Part shown: positions 33,733 to 40,156 of the stretch, in pieces
Layout: each line of letters begins with the position of its first letter
Numbering within the stretch: the first letter of the stretch is position 1
Origin: a virus
Strand: one strand, 5' to 3'
DNA length: 64,000 bases
Virus record (IMG/VR): IMGVR_UViG_3300031565_014867
Span: 1-64,000 of that record
Made by a program: the position numbers and the translations under genes
Notes under the pieces: generated by a model
Told to the model about the DNA's origin: nothing
The model's input: only the letters and a program-made list of their open reading frames with translations
The model's database searches: none

Positions 33733-36700
33733 ATGAGTGCCGACACGTTTCCCTTCGAGATCCATTCCAACCTTGAACTGGGTGCCCTTCCTCCGCAATT
33801 GCGGGCGCTTAGCCGGTTCGTCGCCGAACGCTCAGAGACTGCCCACCCTTGGGGAAACCTTCATGTTACCTGGTCCAGTGACTGGTCAGATCTGACCCTT
33901 CTTGCGTACTTCGGGCAAGTGCTGCGACTATGCCAGAGGCGATTCGCCCAGGTCAACCTTCAACTGGATGGCCCGATGGTCAAGAAGATCCCGTTCTTGT
34001 GGAAGTGTGGGTTCTTTGACTGCGTGCGGGCCAACCGCGTCGGGAGCATTCTGGAATGCTTCCCGGATCCTTGGCGCCATCGCCCAGACACCGACCTCGT
34101 CCGCGCCAACTACACGCCTCTCGTCATGTTGGATGTCGCTCCAGTTGGCCAAGGTGACACCAAGCCCCAGTTCAGAGACCGTCAGGTGACCGACTGCATT
34201 AACGATTGGGACGTCGGTCTCCGTTCCACCGCATCTTTTCCTGTGGTGCGCAACGCCGATGCTATCCACTCGCGAGAGTATCTTTACTTGTTATTGTGGG
34301 AACTCCTGAATAATGCATACATCCACTCCGAAACTCATCATGTCACGCTCGCGGGGCAGATATTTTTGTCGCAAGAACACATCGCCGCCTTGAAGAACCT
34401 TGCCGATGATATCAGCAACGATTATCTGCTCCAATCCGCGGGCTCAGTCCCTTCGCTTCTCGACGCGTTGGCAGTGCAGCACAGAATCGAAGTACAACAC
34501 ACCCAGTTGACGGCTCGCCGTACCTGGTTGAAAAACCACAGAGATCGGTCTTTCCTGTTGCTTAGTTGCACCGATTCCGGAATGGGTATCCCGCAATCTC
34601 TGAAAAGGTCGGAGGTCGTCGCAGAGCAAGAAACCGATGGTCACGCGCTGGCGCGTGCCTTCAGTCCGTGGACATCGACGCGACGGAATGATCCTACTTT
34701 GTATGACGTTCACGGGTTGTCGCAGATCCTCCGACTCGTGGAAGAGTACGACGGATATTTGTTCCTGCAAAGTGGTGCCGCGTACCTAGAGTTCACGCGC
34801 ACTACGCCGTTGTCCGATGGACAACGACTCCCCGAAGAGAGGGTCCTAGACGGCTCGCTATTTCAAATCCTTCTACCTCTGAGCGCGGAGCCTGCCAGTC
34901 GGCCGGTTCGCAAGTGGATGGCGCCCGGCCACTCGCCGGGATCCCCGGAGCCCGCCGATCCCGAACACAGAAGTGTCTTCGTGGTCGGCGAACTACGGCG
35001 TGCCGGAATCGACGTTCCCGTACGAGAGGAGGACTGGACGCGAGCGGCCGACGTGGTGATCCGTTGTGCTGATGCGATCACTACCGATCCCCTATTTCTC
35101 GATCTTGTCCGGATGCCACACGATCACCAGTTCCTGAGTTTCCTTTTGCGAAGCGTCCGCCGCACCAGACTCTCGCACGGCGTTGTAGTGGTCAACGCGT
35201 CGCGTGAGTTTCTAGCGATTGCCAAGAACATGCAGAGGATCGATCTGGGTGACATCGCGGATGAACAAGTGAAGAGTTGCGCCGAACTAGATCGAGACTT
35301 GGCCCTGGCACTCAGCCGAGGAGAGATCGGGTGCTTGCCGCTGTTGCTGCCTTTCTTGGCACTCGCTGACGACGGAAGTCCCGCGGGTGTTCTGTGGCTT
35401 GGACTAGGTTGCTACGCACCGACACGGCGACGGGCAGTGGAAATCGCCTTGAACTATCTCCTGGGCTCGGAGGGAGCTGAGTTCAGTTGGAAAGAACTGT
35501 TTGAAATCGCTACTGCCCACGATCCAGTAGAAGGTCTTACCGAACAGGAATTTGGCTTACTCTTTGACGCTATCGTTCGCTGCAATCGGTCATTACTCGC
35601 CCCGGTTGCTGGCGGATGTCGCTCGGTGTTGACATCTTACGATGTGGAGTACGTTTCACTGGCCTCACTCCGAAAGGAAGTGGAAAACCTGATACCGCGG
35701 ATGGAACACCAAAAGGCTCGCGACCAGCAGGACTTCCTCTATAGTCTCGCCTGGCACCCGCCCGAGCGGCGTTTCCGTAAGCGCTACTATCGTACTTGGC
35801 CTGTGCTCGCGGATGAGCACTATCGTCACATCTGCGCGCGATTGCTCGTGCAACAAGCCTATGAGACTCTGGGAGACGTGGTTGCGGCGGCCCGCGCCGT
35901 CGTTTGCGCCACGCCCTCGGCAGGGCTGCTGGGACGAGAGGTCGCTGCGATTCTCGGTACGGCCTTCTACGAAGTCCCGAGCATTTATGAGATCGATCAT
36001 CGGGATTGGATCCCACGGCTCAACGGACCCGCGATTGTGGTCGACGACGTTCTCGACACTGGTACACTTACACAGCAGTTGGTGCAGTACCTACAAAAGG
36101 TCGGGGCACACTGTCCCTGTGTCCTCACACTCCTGGAAAACGCGGAAACAGCGCAAGAAAGGCCCAGCCTGCCCCTCGTTCTGAAGGGGAGTGCCATCGA
36201 CCTCGGTATTCCGACGACGGAAGAAGTGGCAAGGGCTATCGAGTCTCAAGGCTACTTTGAGGTCGATCCGCACACACTCGACCCGCTTCCTCCCAGAACC
36301 TCGGCTCGTGATTCCCTGTCCAGGGAAACGCGCCGGCGCCTCGAAACGCTGGCGCATGAAAAGGCCATCTTCAGCGGGCATATCGTGCATGGAGACCACC
36401 ACTACAACATGTACTTCAGCCTGCGCGATGCTCTCGCGTCACCGACAGCGCGCGATGAAATCCTGACATGGGTGCTCGACGAGATCCGCGCGTTTGCCCG
36501 ACAAGCACAGAAGCAAGGGGCTCACGCGATTACGCTCGTATATCCGTACTACTCGCCCGTCTACAGACTAGTCTCGCGAATACTCGCTCGTTGGTACCAA
36601 GAAGCCGCAGTTGGCGTCGAACTTCGCTGCCTGGTGGCCAAGCCATGCCAATTGAGTGGAACTCGCATCGGGTATCAACTGGCCGATGTAACAAACCGCG

Positions 36701-38541: not shown

Positions 38542-40156
38542 GGACGATATCTGGGAACGTGAAAACCTTCCAGGGATCATCGAGTCCTCTTGGAAGGACA
38601 TGTTTGCCGGTGAACAAGTCGAGGTCCACGGTTGCTCCGATGTTGCCCGCGAGGACCGGCCACGTCCCCCGATTATTCCCCTTGACAAAGTCGGACAATA
38701 CGATGCTCTTCTGCTCGATATTTGGTGGGGAAAACCCAGTTCCGGGTCACCTCATGGCGTCGAGATTGCCGAGACAGTACGTCGGCGCTATCCGGAAATG
38801 CCAATTATCGTGTTCTCACGACACGTCTCGCTTGAAGACTTTCAATCTCTGATACCTCACGGCATCGCAGGATATCTGACCAAAACCGATCCCACGGCCC
38901 AAACCTGGTGTGCCGAAATCCACCGCGTCTTGGAAACCACTGGCCGCGAACGTTCCGGTCACCCTCTGTATCAACTCCTCAGGCATCTGCTAGCTGAAAC
39001 CCCCAACGCCTGGTGTCGGAATGAGGTCGACCAAGCTGCCTCTGAAGTCTGGCGTCATGAGAACCCTTATCAGAAATGGGAACAGTTTTGGGGAGTGTGG
39101 GTGCCGTATTTGGGGCAAAAACGCATCAACATCCCCTGCGACGACATCGCTCGGTTCTTTGCCAAGGAAGAACTCCTAACGATCTCTGTAGGCGAAGCCT
39201 TGCGCGGACATCTGGAACATGTCTTGCATGTGTATTTCACCGGGTACATTATAAGCCATGTCGCACCGGGGTTTCGCGATCATGTACTGAACGCCGTTCG
39301 CTATCTTCTAAAGGAAGATTATCGCGAGGACCAGACGGAAGCCTATTGGGACATGTTCCAAGCAAGTTGGCTCGTCGCCGCCACGCTGCACGACGCCGCC
39401 TATCCGCTAGAGATTCTCCCTGACGTCGTGCATGAAGCATCCCAGATTCAAGACATGTTTCCCTTTGCGCAACTCACTCCCACCGTTCCGTCTGTGGCTC
39501 CTTCGGGCGTAGCGTGGAACAGTACGGAGGGGCGAGCGGCACGGGATGCGTTTCGTTTTGTTCTTGACCGCCTCTACGACAATACGAGTGCCCTCCGCTT
39601 TGTGCAAGCGAACGCATTGTTCTCCGACGGGAAGGTACAGCGGTTCAACCATGGTGTCGCTTCTGGCGCATGCTTCATGAAGGAAGCTCAAAAATGGGGT
39701 GACCTTCCCAATTCGCTGCCATTGGTGTTCCTTCAATGGGCCGCCACAGCCATGGCCCTCCATGCCTTGAAACATGCTGCGGAGCCAAACGGCGTGTGCA
39801 TTGCTCTCCAGCGAGATCCTTTGTCGTTCCTGTTGGCTTTGTGTGACGAGTTGCAGGTGTGGAATCGCAGTCGTCCCGATGAGACACCAACGTCATCAGA
39901 TTTCCGTCGCGTCGATTTGCACGCAATGGAATTTGACGGCAACAAGCTCTCTGCCACCATTGAATACGATTTGTTTCCACTGGTTGATACACATCGACAG
40001 AAGAAGGCTGTAAATGCGATCACAAGCCGTCTCAGCAAAGACCAGCGTTTAATGAAGATCTATCTTAAGCCGGAACCACTAGGAGTAGAGATTCTGAGCC
40101 GGATACGGGATCCATTCACCGAACTGCCGCCGATCCTGCTGGGCGATGCTGATTGA
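38513..40156 (+). CDS. Response-regulator receiver fused to an HD phosphohydrolase domain
   Basis: LLCEDD, LLLDIW, PIIVFS, YLTK (REC); H..H...V, LHDAAYP, NHGVASG, AMALH, PLSFLLALCDELQ.WNR (HD); overlaps the upstream gene by 29 nt. Confidence 0.82.
   Translation: MRIPKLLLCEDDIWERENLPGIIESSWKDMFAGEQVEVHGCSDVAREDRPRPPIIPLDKVGQYDALLLDIWWGKPSSGSPHGVEIAETVRRRYPEMPIIVFSRHVSLEDFQSLIPHGIAGYLTKTDPTAQTWCAEIHRVLETTGRERSGHPLYQLLRHLLAETPNAWCRNEVDQAASEVWRHENPYQKWEQFWGVWVPYLGQKRINIPCDDIARFFAKEELLTISVGEALRGHLEHVLHVYFTGYIISHVAPGFRDHVLNAVRYLLKEDYREDQTEAYWDMFQASWLVAATLHDAAYPLEILPDVVHEASQIQDMFPFAQLTPTVPSVAPSGVAWNSTEGRAARDAFRFVLDRLYDNTSALRFVQANALFSDGKVQRFNHGVASGACFMKEAQKWGDLPNSLPLVFLQWAATAMALHALKHAAEPNGVCIALQRDPLSFLLALCDELQVWNRSRPDETPTSSDFRRVDLHAMEFDGNKLSATIEYDLFPLVDTHRQKKAVNAITSRLSKDQRLMKIYLKPEPLGVEILSRIRDPFTELPPILLGDAD

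Follow-up and report, generated by a model that had tools for sequence, protein, structure and literature searches.

What is the role, in a temperate soil phage, of a giant kinase-like protein with two type-I PRTase domains, encoded next to a receiver fused to an HD-type phosphohydrolase? The question is raised by positions 1 to 64,000 of IMG/VR record IMGVR_UViG_3300031565_014867, the 64,000-nucleotide stretch referred to here as the window, in which a first-pass annotation had singled out the two genes and suggested a circuit for anti-phage defence or superinfection exclusion. The 1602-aa open reading frame described there is found at 33733..38541 on the plus strand and, from ORF and translation, encodes the giant protein P0001, whose full-length relatives, about 20 in number, are 1537-1654 aa long. 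The gene for the receiver-HD protein P0002 (38513..40156, plus strand) specifies 547 aa from its ATG, residue numbers being counted here from TTG 38486 and not from ATG 38513. The claimed 29-nt overlap is correct given the start at ATG 38513, which is the one used by homologues. Also in keeping with the annotation, no 19-residue window of either protein exceeds a Kyte-Doolittle value of 1.6, as expected where transmembrane segments are lacking, and Pfam reports no DNA-binding family in either; neither Pfam nor hydropathy points to a toxin-like or membrane effector in the pair.

The two genes occupy a slot whose left border is a serine recombinase (32645..33382, minus strand; Pfam Resolvase 1.7e-25, PHROG invertase/integrase), divergent from the pair and previously noted as a serine resolvase. 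The other flank is the ArdA/replication operon of the soil prophage, with its run of small early genes, and phage genes thus stand on both sides. The pair runs opposite to this early operon and, as had been observed, to its neighbours, the genes on either side being on the minus strand; it is also AT-richer than the virion genes, with GC3 of 0.63 in the giant and 0.57 in the receiver-HD gene against 0.79-0.88. Between 33383 and 41387 these are the only two real genes. A 188-aa ORF downstream (40146-40712) translates into low-complexity sequence and is missing from the homologous loci L003 and L004, and no Rfam match at E<=0.1 occurs in 33300-41600. The pair was missing from all 80 viral loci related by terL, although just 22 extend upstream far enough and three keep the recombinase, and from all five related records, two of which are at least 98% complete. 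The pair is accessory cargo of a temperate soil phage.

Relatives are scarce, with 44 matches in 1.84 billion representatives and the two gene families similarly rare, and their spread is patchy, comprising Verrucomicrobiota, Bacteroidota and Hydrogenedentota MAGs in addition to the soil prophage. In 5/5 loci with a full-length receiver-HD gene (the window, L002, L003, L004 and L010, the last being the same DNA as L004), that gene is immediately preceded, on its own strand, by the giant, and matching contig sizes of 7009 bp and 32980 bp suggest two further pairs. This conserved adjacency agrees with the earlier description of a self-contained pair, and the two genes may well constitute a single cassette that combines signalling with an effector and belongs to a rare family not yet named. 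A weakly matching protein of 1722 aa, P0070, has the GHKL domain, the middle region and both PRTases in common with the giants (99.6% over 847 columns). In L003 the pair is bordered by transposase genes of the IS21 and Mutator types; in L004 it lies between clpB, genes for secreted protease and Ig-domain proteins, and PEPCK. Homologues occur in mobile or ordinary surroundings, and the enrichment in defence islands put forward as a check was not seen.

These surroundings bear on a possible counter-defence function, in which nucleotides of host immune signalling or depletion systems would be destroyed or replenished by the HD enzyme, perhaps together with the PRTases, once the giant senses host defence activity and switches them on. 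Such a function would suit the adjoining ArdA anti-restriction gene and small early genes, and phages are described as carrying nucleotide-restoring enzymes against depletion defences, for example for NAD+ synthesis (PMC9503650). However, the cassette is transcribed against the early operon, all other loci with readable surroundings are bacterial and not viral, and relatives turned up neither in a pattern scan of IMG/VR nor in 50,697 GenBank phages nor in the 80 related phage loci; PLSDB plasmids likewise gave none. A counter-defence module is accordingly considered very unlikely.

The domains of P0001 were parsed with sequence profiles. Its N-terminal region, residues 1-160 (33733..34212, plus strand), has conserved W51/D53 and FLW..GF motifs, no assigned fold and no PDB sequence match. 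It precedes a GHKL/Bergerat ATPase domain at approximately residues 177-383 (34261..34881, plus strand), recognised by motifs and hhalign. The ATP site of this domain is intact, as the first reading had it: E190, N194, H198, D281, G283, G285 and H327-G328-L329 do not vary across 20 sequences, and the quoted ELLNNAYIHS (from nt 34300) and DSGMGI (D281) are in place. The domain matches the HK ATPase-domain reference with hhalign 95.7% (E 1e-8) and the HATPase_c_2 reference with 52%, and its Atlas neighbours carry HATPase_c or HATPase_c_2. The middle region, residues 405-650 (34945..35682, plus strand), has invariant D457, N488, R529, W555 and G557, and again neither an assigned fold nor a PDB match. 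Both unassigned regions had been termed STAS-like, a designation that sequence-profile comparison with a 12-sequence STAS reference did not support: hhalign gave 0.3% for residues 1-165 and a non-significant 1.3% (E 0.039) for residues 405-650, colinear over 96 columns.

Like the STAS segments, the RsbW/STAS partner-switch element of the annotation is not supported by the profiles. In that scheme the GHKL domain would be an RsbW/SpoIIAB-type serine kinase acting on the STAS-like segments of its own polypeptide and gating the PRTases without a His-Asp relay. The colinearity of the middle region with STAS is in its favour, as is the N-box of the giant, NAxxHS, which we take to be of the kind present in anti-sigma kinases, and a lead is provided by Atlas neighbours of residues 1-400, which include clusters with HATPase_c_2 or DUF4325 in 16-19% of members. 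Against these stand the low STAS values, the better match of the GHKL domain to HK ATPase domains than to HATPase_c_2, and the variable residue (T/S/A/T) where the N-terminal segment should have its STAS-equivalent Ser/Thr; moreover, no donor would be left for the fully conserved receiver acceptor site of the partner protein. Partner switching within the giant is therefore held to be a poor prospect.

Both of the PRTase folds previously proposed were recovered by hhalign, each as a Rossmann-like type-I core with its PRPP loop and with an alignment spanning the whole fold. Domain 1, at approximately residues 686-825 (35788..36207, plus strand; 96.9%, E 1.3e-10, 140 columns), contains the quoted VVDDVLDTGT near nt 36037; T727, A730, G731 and D772 are invariant, and D775 and T776 are conserved in at least 90% of sequences. 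The L003 relative has lost one Asp of the pair in this domain, and the L004 relative the loop Asp. Domain 2, at approximately residues 890-1079 (36400..36969, plus strand; 95.6%, E 1.1e-8, 170 columns), retains the loop FxDDGIxxGxT (FLDDGIASGGT near nt 36727, as quoted), with F999, D1002 and I1004 kept in 90% or more of sequences, and has its C-terminal end at the invariant C1076/C1079 of the CPEC motif. Also invariant are Y937-P-Y939, S941, D1001, G1003, G1007, T1009, H883 and H890, and a His/Cys metal site in the PRTase region is likely. Pfam Pribosyltran is found in 20/20 members of the giant family and PRTase-CE in 10/20.

The stretch linking PRTase 2 to the C-terminal ATPase, residues 1095-1439 (37015..38049, plus strand), includes His1333 (codon 37729-37731), invariant in 20 sequences and surrounded by an NFxGSYSxHxES motif, with the FSHHG of the annotation at residues 1330-1334. 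A classical two-component kinase has a recognisable DHp domain or H-box with a phospho-accepting His, and the giant lacks one: reference comparison around H1333 gave 0.3% for HisKA, 0.2% for HisKA_2, 0.1% for HisKA_3 and 2.3% for Hpt, in the last case with the His not aligned, set against 51-73% when real DHp families were compared with each other as positive controls. As H1333 is invariant yet no H-box family is recognised, it is a phospho-acceptor candidate only. Residues 1440-1589 (38050..38499, plus strand) form a C-terminal histidine-kinase-type ATPase (CA) domain with a degenerate lid (hhalign 98.6%, E 1e-15), some 1100 residues downstream of the intact GHKL site; Pfam HATPase_c is found in 16/20 family members. 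N1491 is invariant and the G1 Asp is kept in 13/18 distinct members. The DxGxG glycines, reported missing at the outset, are indeed so in the family at large (DxGxG in 0/18), with the G1 glycines absent and, in P0001, those of G2 as well.

The receiver-HD protein was modelled with AlphaFold2 (pLDDT 88.4, pTM 0.90). Its receiver (REC) domain (38525..38950, plus strand), for which the Foldseek and PDB profile matches are CheY-like receivers, is complete, as had been stated: the phospho-acceptor Asp78 (codon 38717-38719), S111 and K133 are invariant, and the acidic pair retains its first residue in 20/20 sequences and its second Asp in 18/20. With acidic pair, acceptor Asp, Ser/Thr and Lys, the two-component receiver set is whole, and from these residues the domain looks phosphorylatable. 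The fused HD-type phosphohydrolase domain (38960..39853, plus strand) is all-helical, the model being helical across 159-456, and was identified from its motif set, structure match and hhalign. The H...HD...D metal-binding motif of the HD superfamily is contained in an H..HD..H..H..D site formed by H245, H302-D303, H389, H426 and D454, and the invariant residues comprise H242, H245, H302-D303, N388-H389, H426 and D454-E455. Concurring evidence comes from the Atlas, where the structure matches an HD cluster (TM 0.75), and from an hhalign match to an HD reference (E 6e-4, HD motif aligned); P0002 itself does not reach Pfam HD. The earlier assignment of an HD domain to this protein is thus upheld, with moderate support for an HD-type hydrolase. 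A small C-terminal alpha/beta domain (39902..40141, plus strand) is suggested by the secondary structure of the model.

In classical signalling, receiver-HD proteins serve as outputs, for example the RpfG-type HD-GYP regulators, and this is one reason to consider the pair an auxiliary nucleotide-metabolism regulator serving phage or host. The PRTases would then serve in nucleotide synthesis or sensing, and the receiver-HD protein would trim pools or a second messenger, with the effect of tuning replication or lysogeny rather than killing infected cells. PRPP loops as conserved as those of working salvage enzymes, the ordinary genes around the L004 pair and the lack of a toxin-like or membrane effector all accord with such a regulator. 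It is nevertheless thought unlikely in view of the extreme rarity and patchy distribution over unrelated phyla, the low-GC3 cargo character of the pair, the transposases flanking the L003 pair and the related phages that lack it. The HD domain also counts against it: the HD-GYP signature is HHExxDGxGYP, and the GYP motif is absent from the 21-sequence receiver-HD alignment, which sets the protein apart from the RpfG type.

By sequence, no named system matches both proteins, in line with the earlier statement that no characterised system with this exact architecture is known; at E<=0.1, P0001 and P0002 match no PADLOC model except DpdF at noise level (E 0.053). The nearest in logic is Detocs, described as a sensor kinase (DtcA), a buffer receiver (DtcB) and a receiver-PNP effector (DtcC), and as evidence that a two-component system can act as a defence system (bioRxiv 10.1101/2023.01.24.525353). 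As the preprint presents it, Detocs shares with the pair a kinase-like sensor and a receiver-effector gene, an enzyme as output, acting on nucleotides (putatively so in the pair), in place of a DNA-binding domain, and a self-contained operon in which a membrane sensor is not required. The pair, in contrast, has two conserved genes and no third, stand-alone receiver corresponding to DtcB, its effector is HD where that of Detocs is described as PNP, and its sensor of 1602 aa has two PRTase domains, a second ATPase and no recognisable H-box. Sequence kinship with Detocs is not shown.

For the PRTases, the nearest known are the effectors of retron type III-A and ShosT. Retron-Eco11 is reported to use a type-I PRTase-like domain for phage defence, and this effector, once activated, to reduce PRPP (PMC12746101). 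The PADLOC retron PRTase_III-A model is matched by 9/20 giants (best E 2.5e-8), though not by P0001 itself; unlike the retron, the pair lacks a reverse transcriptase, an ncRNA and a winged-helix tail, and its two PRTase domains are within a kinase-like protein. In ShosT of ShosTA, according to the account available, a PRTase is likewise coupled to a phosphohydrolase, driving PRPP use forward; toxicity depends on the PRTase Asp pair, and PRPP binding is shown while the acceptor is given as not known (PMC11961720). That essential PRPP-loop Asp pair is conserved in PRTase 2 of the giant. The hydrolase of ShosT, however, is described as a fused HAD-type pyrophosphatase under antitoxin control, whereas in the pair a second protein, under receiver control, supplies it as an HD domain, and PDB searches with the pair gave no ShosT sequence match. 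For the receiver only, the nearest is PDC-M43, listed like PDC-M65 as a PADLOC candidate (Payne et al., bioRxiv 10.1101/2024.01.29.577857): 9/21 receiver-HD proteins give weak matches to PDC-M43A models (best E 1.8e-4), P0002 itself not among them, and 0/20 giants match PDC-M65 or PDC-M43 models. The nucleotide depletion proposed in the first-pass annotation has precedent in defence, as reported for Retron-Eco11 (PMC12746101) and ShosT (PMC11961720).

The best explanation, to which about an even chance is given, is a module, gated by phosphorylation and directed at PRPP and nucleotides, that brings about abortive infection or superinfection exclusion. The giant would be a cytoplasmic sensor and kinase whose N-terminal GHKL domain is ATP-competent, triggered presumably by infection with another phage or by a shift in PRPP/nucleotide pools. 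A phosphoryl group would then pass from the giant to Asp78 of the partner's receiver and thereby activate the HD phosphohydrolase, a dimetal enzyme; PRPP would be consumed by the PRTase domains themselves, or these would serve as a PRPP/nucleotide sensor. The loss of nucleotide precursors or nucleic acid would result in abortive infection or superinfection exclusion. Counted against this module are the unrecognised H-box, the C-terminal ATPase without G1 glycines, contexts other than defence islands, the Asp losses in PRTase 1 of the L003 and L004 relatives, the failure of P0001 and P0002 to match PADLOC models beyond noise level, and the adjoining ArdA anti-restriction operon, which would fit a counter-defence role as well.

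A more specific and rather doubtful form of the proposal is a PRPP-burning machine, in which the GHKL domain, once the giant senses a superinfecting phage, would load His1333 for transfer to Asp78 and the HD enzyme would hydrolyse the product of PRTase 2, be it pyrophosphate or the phosphoribosylated acceptor made by the giant. This hydrolysis would make the PRPP drain irreversible and thereby exclude superinfecting phages. If true, the cassette would parallel the toxin ShosT, with its fused PRTase and pyrophosphatase, in a split form under two-component control, used by a temperate phage against rivals.

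The cassette formed by the giant protein and its receiver-HD partner is real, conserved and unnamed. Within the 81.8-kb IMG/VR provirus record, of which the window takes in bases 1-64000, the giant is encoded on the plus strand by an open reading frame of 1602 codons (33733-38541), as read from the ORF and its translation. The 547-aa partner is encoded on the same strand in another frame, from an ATG at 38513 to 40156. Homologues of the partner begin at this Met, and with this start the 29-nt overlap claimed in the first-pass annotation holds. The observations of that annotation on the pair were largely right: all the motifs it quoted from the giant (ELLNNAYIHS, DSGMGI, VVDDVLDTGT, FLDDGIASGGT, CPEC and FSHHG) were found where it had placed them, and Pfam shows no DNA-binding family in the pair, in keeping with the reported lack of a DNA-binding output. 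On the Kyte-Doolittle scale, every 19-residue window of both proteins stays at or below 1.6, and thus no membrane segment is predicted in either, as had also been claimed. A promoter and terminator scan returned fewer sites than shuffled sequence, and an Rfam scan gave no match.

The receiver-HD family counts 23 members among 5.8 billion clusters. Full-length loci in genome and metagenome collections number five, namely the window, MAGs of Verrucomicrobiota (L002), Bacteroidota (L003) and Hydrogenedentota (L004), and L010, whose DNA is that of L004. These five loci constitute the neighbourhood evidence for the pair. In 5/5 the giant gene immediately precedes the receiver-HD gene in the same orientation, the gene ends overlapping or nearly abutting, bearing out the proposed coupling of the two genes, and the identities of the two proteins drop in parallel from locus to locus. 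Two further pairs are inferred because a giant and a receiver protein occur on contigs of identical size (7009 bp and 32980 bp). By megablast, the pair has no match among GenBank phages; tblastn with the partner found no homologue there or among PLSDB plasmids, and a pattern scan of IMG/VR with the receiver-HD alignment found no relative.

The partner was modelled with AlphaFold2 using 21 homologues (pLDDT 88.4, pTM 0.90), and the model divides into a receiver domain (residues ~14-155, numbered from a TTG at 38486), an all-helical domain (159-456) and a small alpha/beta tail (473-552). The receiver is complete, as had been noted from the sequence, with Asp78 (D69 in numbering from the ATG), Ser111 and Lys133 invariant and the acidic pair present in 20/20 and 18/20 sequences. 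PDB profile and Foldseek matches are CheY-like receivers throughout, with PorX among the Foldseek matches; since the latter concern the receiver domain and PorX only, they are uninformative on the HD part. The helical domain retains H242, H245, H302-D303, N388-H389, H426 and D454-E455 in 21/21 sequences, a pattern that we take to fit a two-metal HD phosphohydrolase, and it contains no GYP motif. The HD assignment itself has moderate support from three lines of evidence. In a protein atlas, the partner matches an HD cluster by structure (TM 0.75 by that row), along with RyR-domain proteins, and an HD-CE cluster by features (0.90). Against an HD reference, hhalign gave an E value of 6e-4 (controls 0.16-0.7) and aligned the HD dipeptide with the highest confidence, and distant relatives of the partner show sub-threshold Pfam HD matches. 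HD-like relatives of 23-26% identity occur in Firmicutes-type MAGs (L005, 9692-12025; L008, 9749-12022; L009, 97-2403). These proteins of 757-777 aa carry the HD-like domain at the N-terminus and a further conserved C-terminal domain in all three, and the L005 protein has a Pfam RyR-domain match; they are a receiver-less architecture of the same hydrolase, different from that of the partner.

Relatives of the giant were collected by an exhaustive HMMER search of 1.84 billion cluster representatives with residues 1-1200 as query, which gave 44 matches, 30 of them below 1e-30 and ~20 full-length (1537-1654 aa). The alignment used here holds 20 full-length relatives, 18 of them distinct. A weaker set of 1539-1722 aa has the GHKL domain, the middle region and both PRTases in common with the family, to which one of its members, P0070, aligns at 99.6% over 847 columns. 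The contigs that carry short relatives of residues 1-400 measure only 1.1-3.1 kb in every case, so these are probably truncated genes and do not count as evidence for split forms of the giant. Pfam matched the window giant to Pribosyltran (27.6 bits) and placed HATPase_c at residues 1481-1580, 0.2 bit under the cut-off, NCBIfam recovered PRPP-loop fragments only, and PADLOC models gave no real match. Across the 20 giants, Pfam found Pribosyltran in 20/20, HATPase_c in 16/20, PRTase_2 in 11/20 and PRTase-CE in 10/20. A PDB search with the whole-giant profile returned PRPP-loop matches and one weak FixL match only; in PDB profile searches with separate sub-alignments, neither residues 1-400 nor 405-650 nor 1095-1602 matched anything meaningful.

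Fold assignments in the giant are based on sequence profiles throughout, compared locally by hhalign with reference alignments of genuine domains, taken from two genomes in which homologues of the pair occur; unrelated control segments scored 0.1-1.3% throughout. The N-terminal GHKL domain (160-400) matches the histidine-kinase ATPase reference at 95.7% (E 1e-8), and the 9-sequence HATPase_c_2 reference at only 52%. Its N box (E190, N194, H198), G1 (D281-x-G283-x-G285) and G2 (H327-G328-L329) residues are invariant in the 20 aligned giants. Both proposed PRTases were recovered as whole folds against a PRTase reference, PRTase 1 at 96.9% over 140 columns and PRTase 2 at 95.6% over 170, with invariant T727, A730, G731 and D772 in the former and Y937-P-Y939, S941, D1001, G1003, G1007 and T1009 in the latter. 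The invariant residues H883, H890, C1076 and C1079 probably form a metal site. The C-terminal domain (1440-1602) matches the histidine-kinase ATPase reference at 98.6% (E 1e-15) and keeps an invariant N1491. As the first-pass annotation had seen, this second ATPase lacks DxGxG, which is kept in 0/18 distinct members; the G1 Asp persists in 13/18 and a GGL remnant of G2 in 10/18, the latter absent from the window giant. Judged from its sequence, this C-terminal ATPase is degenerate.

The kinase had previously been read as part of an RsbW-type element with STAS-like substrate segments, and profile comparison does not support this reading. Against a 12-sequence STAS reference, residues 1-165 reached 0.3% and residues 405-650 reached 1.3%; neither segment matched PDB sequences, and the GHKL domain sides with the histidine kinases; the STAS label is not supported for either segment by these profiles. 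A candidate phosphorylation site is His1333, which is invariant in the aligned giants within the motif NFxGSYSxHxES and lies one residue off the HisKA phospho-His in a full-core alignment. That alignment is of low confidence, and the region alone matches no DHp or Hpt reference in hhalign, so that only its invariance and its position mark His1333 out as a candidate.

Because its acceptor site is complete, the receiver must have a phosphodonor, and its sole constant companion contains two kinase-type ATPases and an invariant His. In the most economical reading, a His-to-Asp, or at least kinase-to-Asp, phosphorelay would run from the giant to the partner receiver, whose phosphorylation would switch on the HD hydrolase. 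The same relay logic has been shown experimentally in Detocs, for which mutants of the kinase His, the receiver Asp and the effector are all reported to lose defence (bioRxiv 10.1101/2023.01.24.525353). The use of PRTases as a weapon has precedent in effectors of retron III-A and in ShosT: PRPP is reported to be halved once the Retron-Eco11 effector is activated (PMC12746101), and the PRTase of ShosT, which is coupled to a pyrophosphatase, needs its Asp pair for toxicity (PMC11961720). PADLOC models of the retron III-A PRTase effector are matched by 9/20 giants. The PRTase domains of the giant could equally serve as PRPP or nucleotide sensors. Searches of the literature on PRTase, HATPase, histidine kinase, receiver and HD conflict and anti-phage systems, and on NTP-dependent conflict systems, turned up no account of the giant/receiver-HD architecture, and for PRTase-CE and HD-CE they yielded unrelated papers only. 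Fig. 6F of the DefensePredictor paper (PMC13092281) includes systems with HATPase and REC. The main text of Payne et al. (bioRxiv 10.1101/2024.01.29.577857) mentions neither PRTases, kinases nor PDC-M numbers, and its supplements may bear on PDC-M43 and PDC-M65. The kin in kind of the cassette are defensive two-component systems and PRTase-based depletion effectors, and it is a member of none. A putative nucleotide-directed, phosphorylation-gated defence role is plausible, with the balance about even.

The pair sits inside the element and is transcribed divergently from a serine recombinase, to the left of which, all on the minus strand like the recombinase, lie genes for the tape measure, P22-type coat, portal and large terminase. 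The recombinase (245 aa; 32645-33382) could represent a truncated integrase or else a short enzyme of the invertase type; its Pfam Recombinase match covers residues 202-241 only, and its homologue in the related phage locus L097 has 308 aa (3650-4576). To the right lie a minus-strand ArdA-type anti-restriction gene (44561-45172; PHROG 2059, 2e-41) and genes for an exonuclease, a 958-aa primase, a ParB-like protein, a helicase and a DNA methyltransferase (52080-62584); ParB and the element's own replication genes could indicate a phage-plasmid lifestyle. A counter-defence role of the cassette is kept alive by the adjoining ArdA operon. A regulatory role is kept alive by the ordinary gene context of L004, where clpB adjoins the pair on one side and secreted-protein and PEPCK genes on the other, and no defence island was seen around the pair in loci with readable context.

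The pair is indeed more AT-rich than the virion genes, with GC3 of 0.63 and 0.57 against 0.79-0.88; that of the early genes is 0.66-0.79. Of the viral loci whose terminase is related (59-96% identity), 0/80 encode either protein; only 22 of the 80 extend the needed 5.6 kb, and 3 of these retain the recombinase. The receiver-HD gene is absent from 5/5 related records, two of them 98-100% complete; one, the provirus G003, has beyond the lysis genes the recombinase alone in common with the window, and nothing past it. An IS21-type transposase/IstB pair (2129-4065) and a Mutator-family transposase (13548-14552) frame the cassette in L003, where it may be mobile as part of a composite element. Given the low GC3, the absence from relatives and these transposase flanks, the cassette is mobile cargo.

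Three soil metagenome runs (X1-X3), each from a different study and one of them possibly the source, contain this DNA in contigs identical across the cassette borders; those of X2 and X3 cover pieces of the cassette and borders with zero differences. No X2 or X3 contig joins across the island, and such contigs are unable to show absence of an island-less form. The cassette does not differ among soil samples, whereas a 237-aa early gene (43019-43732) does: an X2 variant skips 234 bp, gains 12 letters and has several small indels at 43350-43610. The 1.2 kb after the pair (40157-41387) are gene-poor and include, near 41045-41159, an inverted repeat that encloses an AT-rich patch. At 40342-40398, X1 and X3 contigs diverge on both sides and depth rises, which indicates a short sequence common to other DNA in those soils. 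In the envelope/lysis gene cassette (31075-31514), X1 and X2 contigs contain a joint that leads backward from 31514 to 31075 through 17 letters of other sequence and points to a repeat or alternative arrangement.

Low-GC3 cargo carried by a prophage fits superinfection exclusion. If the defence reading is true, the pair would represent a second lineage of defensive two-component systems after Detocs, unrelated to it, and the first whose sensor-kinase itself bears PRPP-binding enzyme domains. Phosphorelay signalling would thereby be tied to the PRPP-depletion strategy of the retron III-A and ShosT effectors, and a temperate phage would have imported a defensive two-component system as cargo. 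Consisting of just two genes with clear catalytic residues, the compact cassette makes the idea directly testable. If the role of the cassette is not defence, the giant nonetheless combines two kinase-type ATPases with two PRTases in an unusual fusion, an architecture with no known function.
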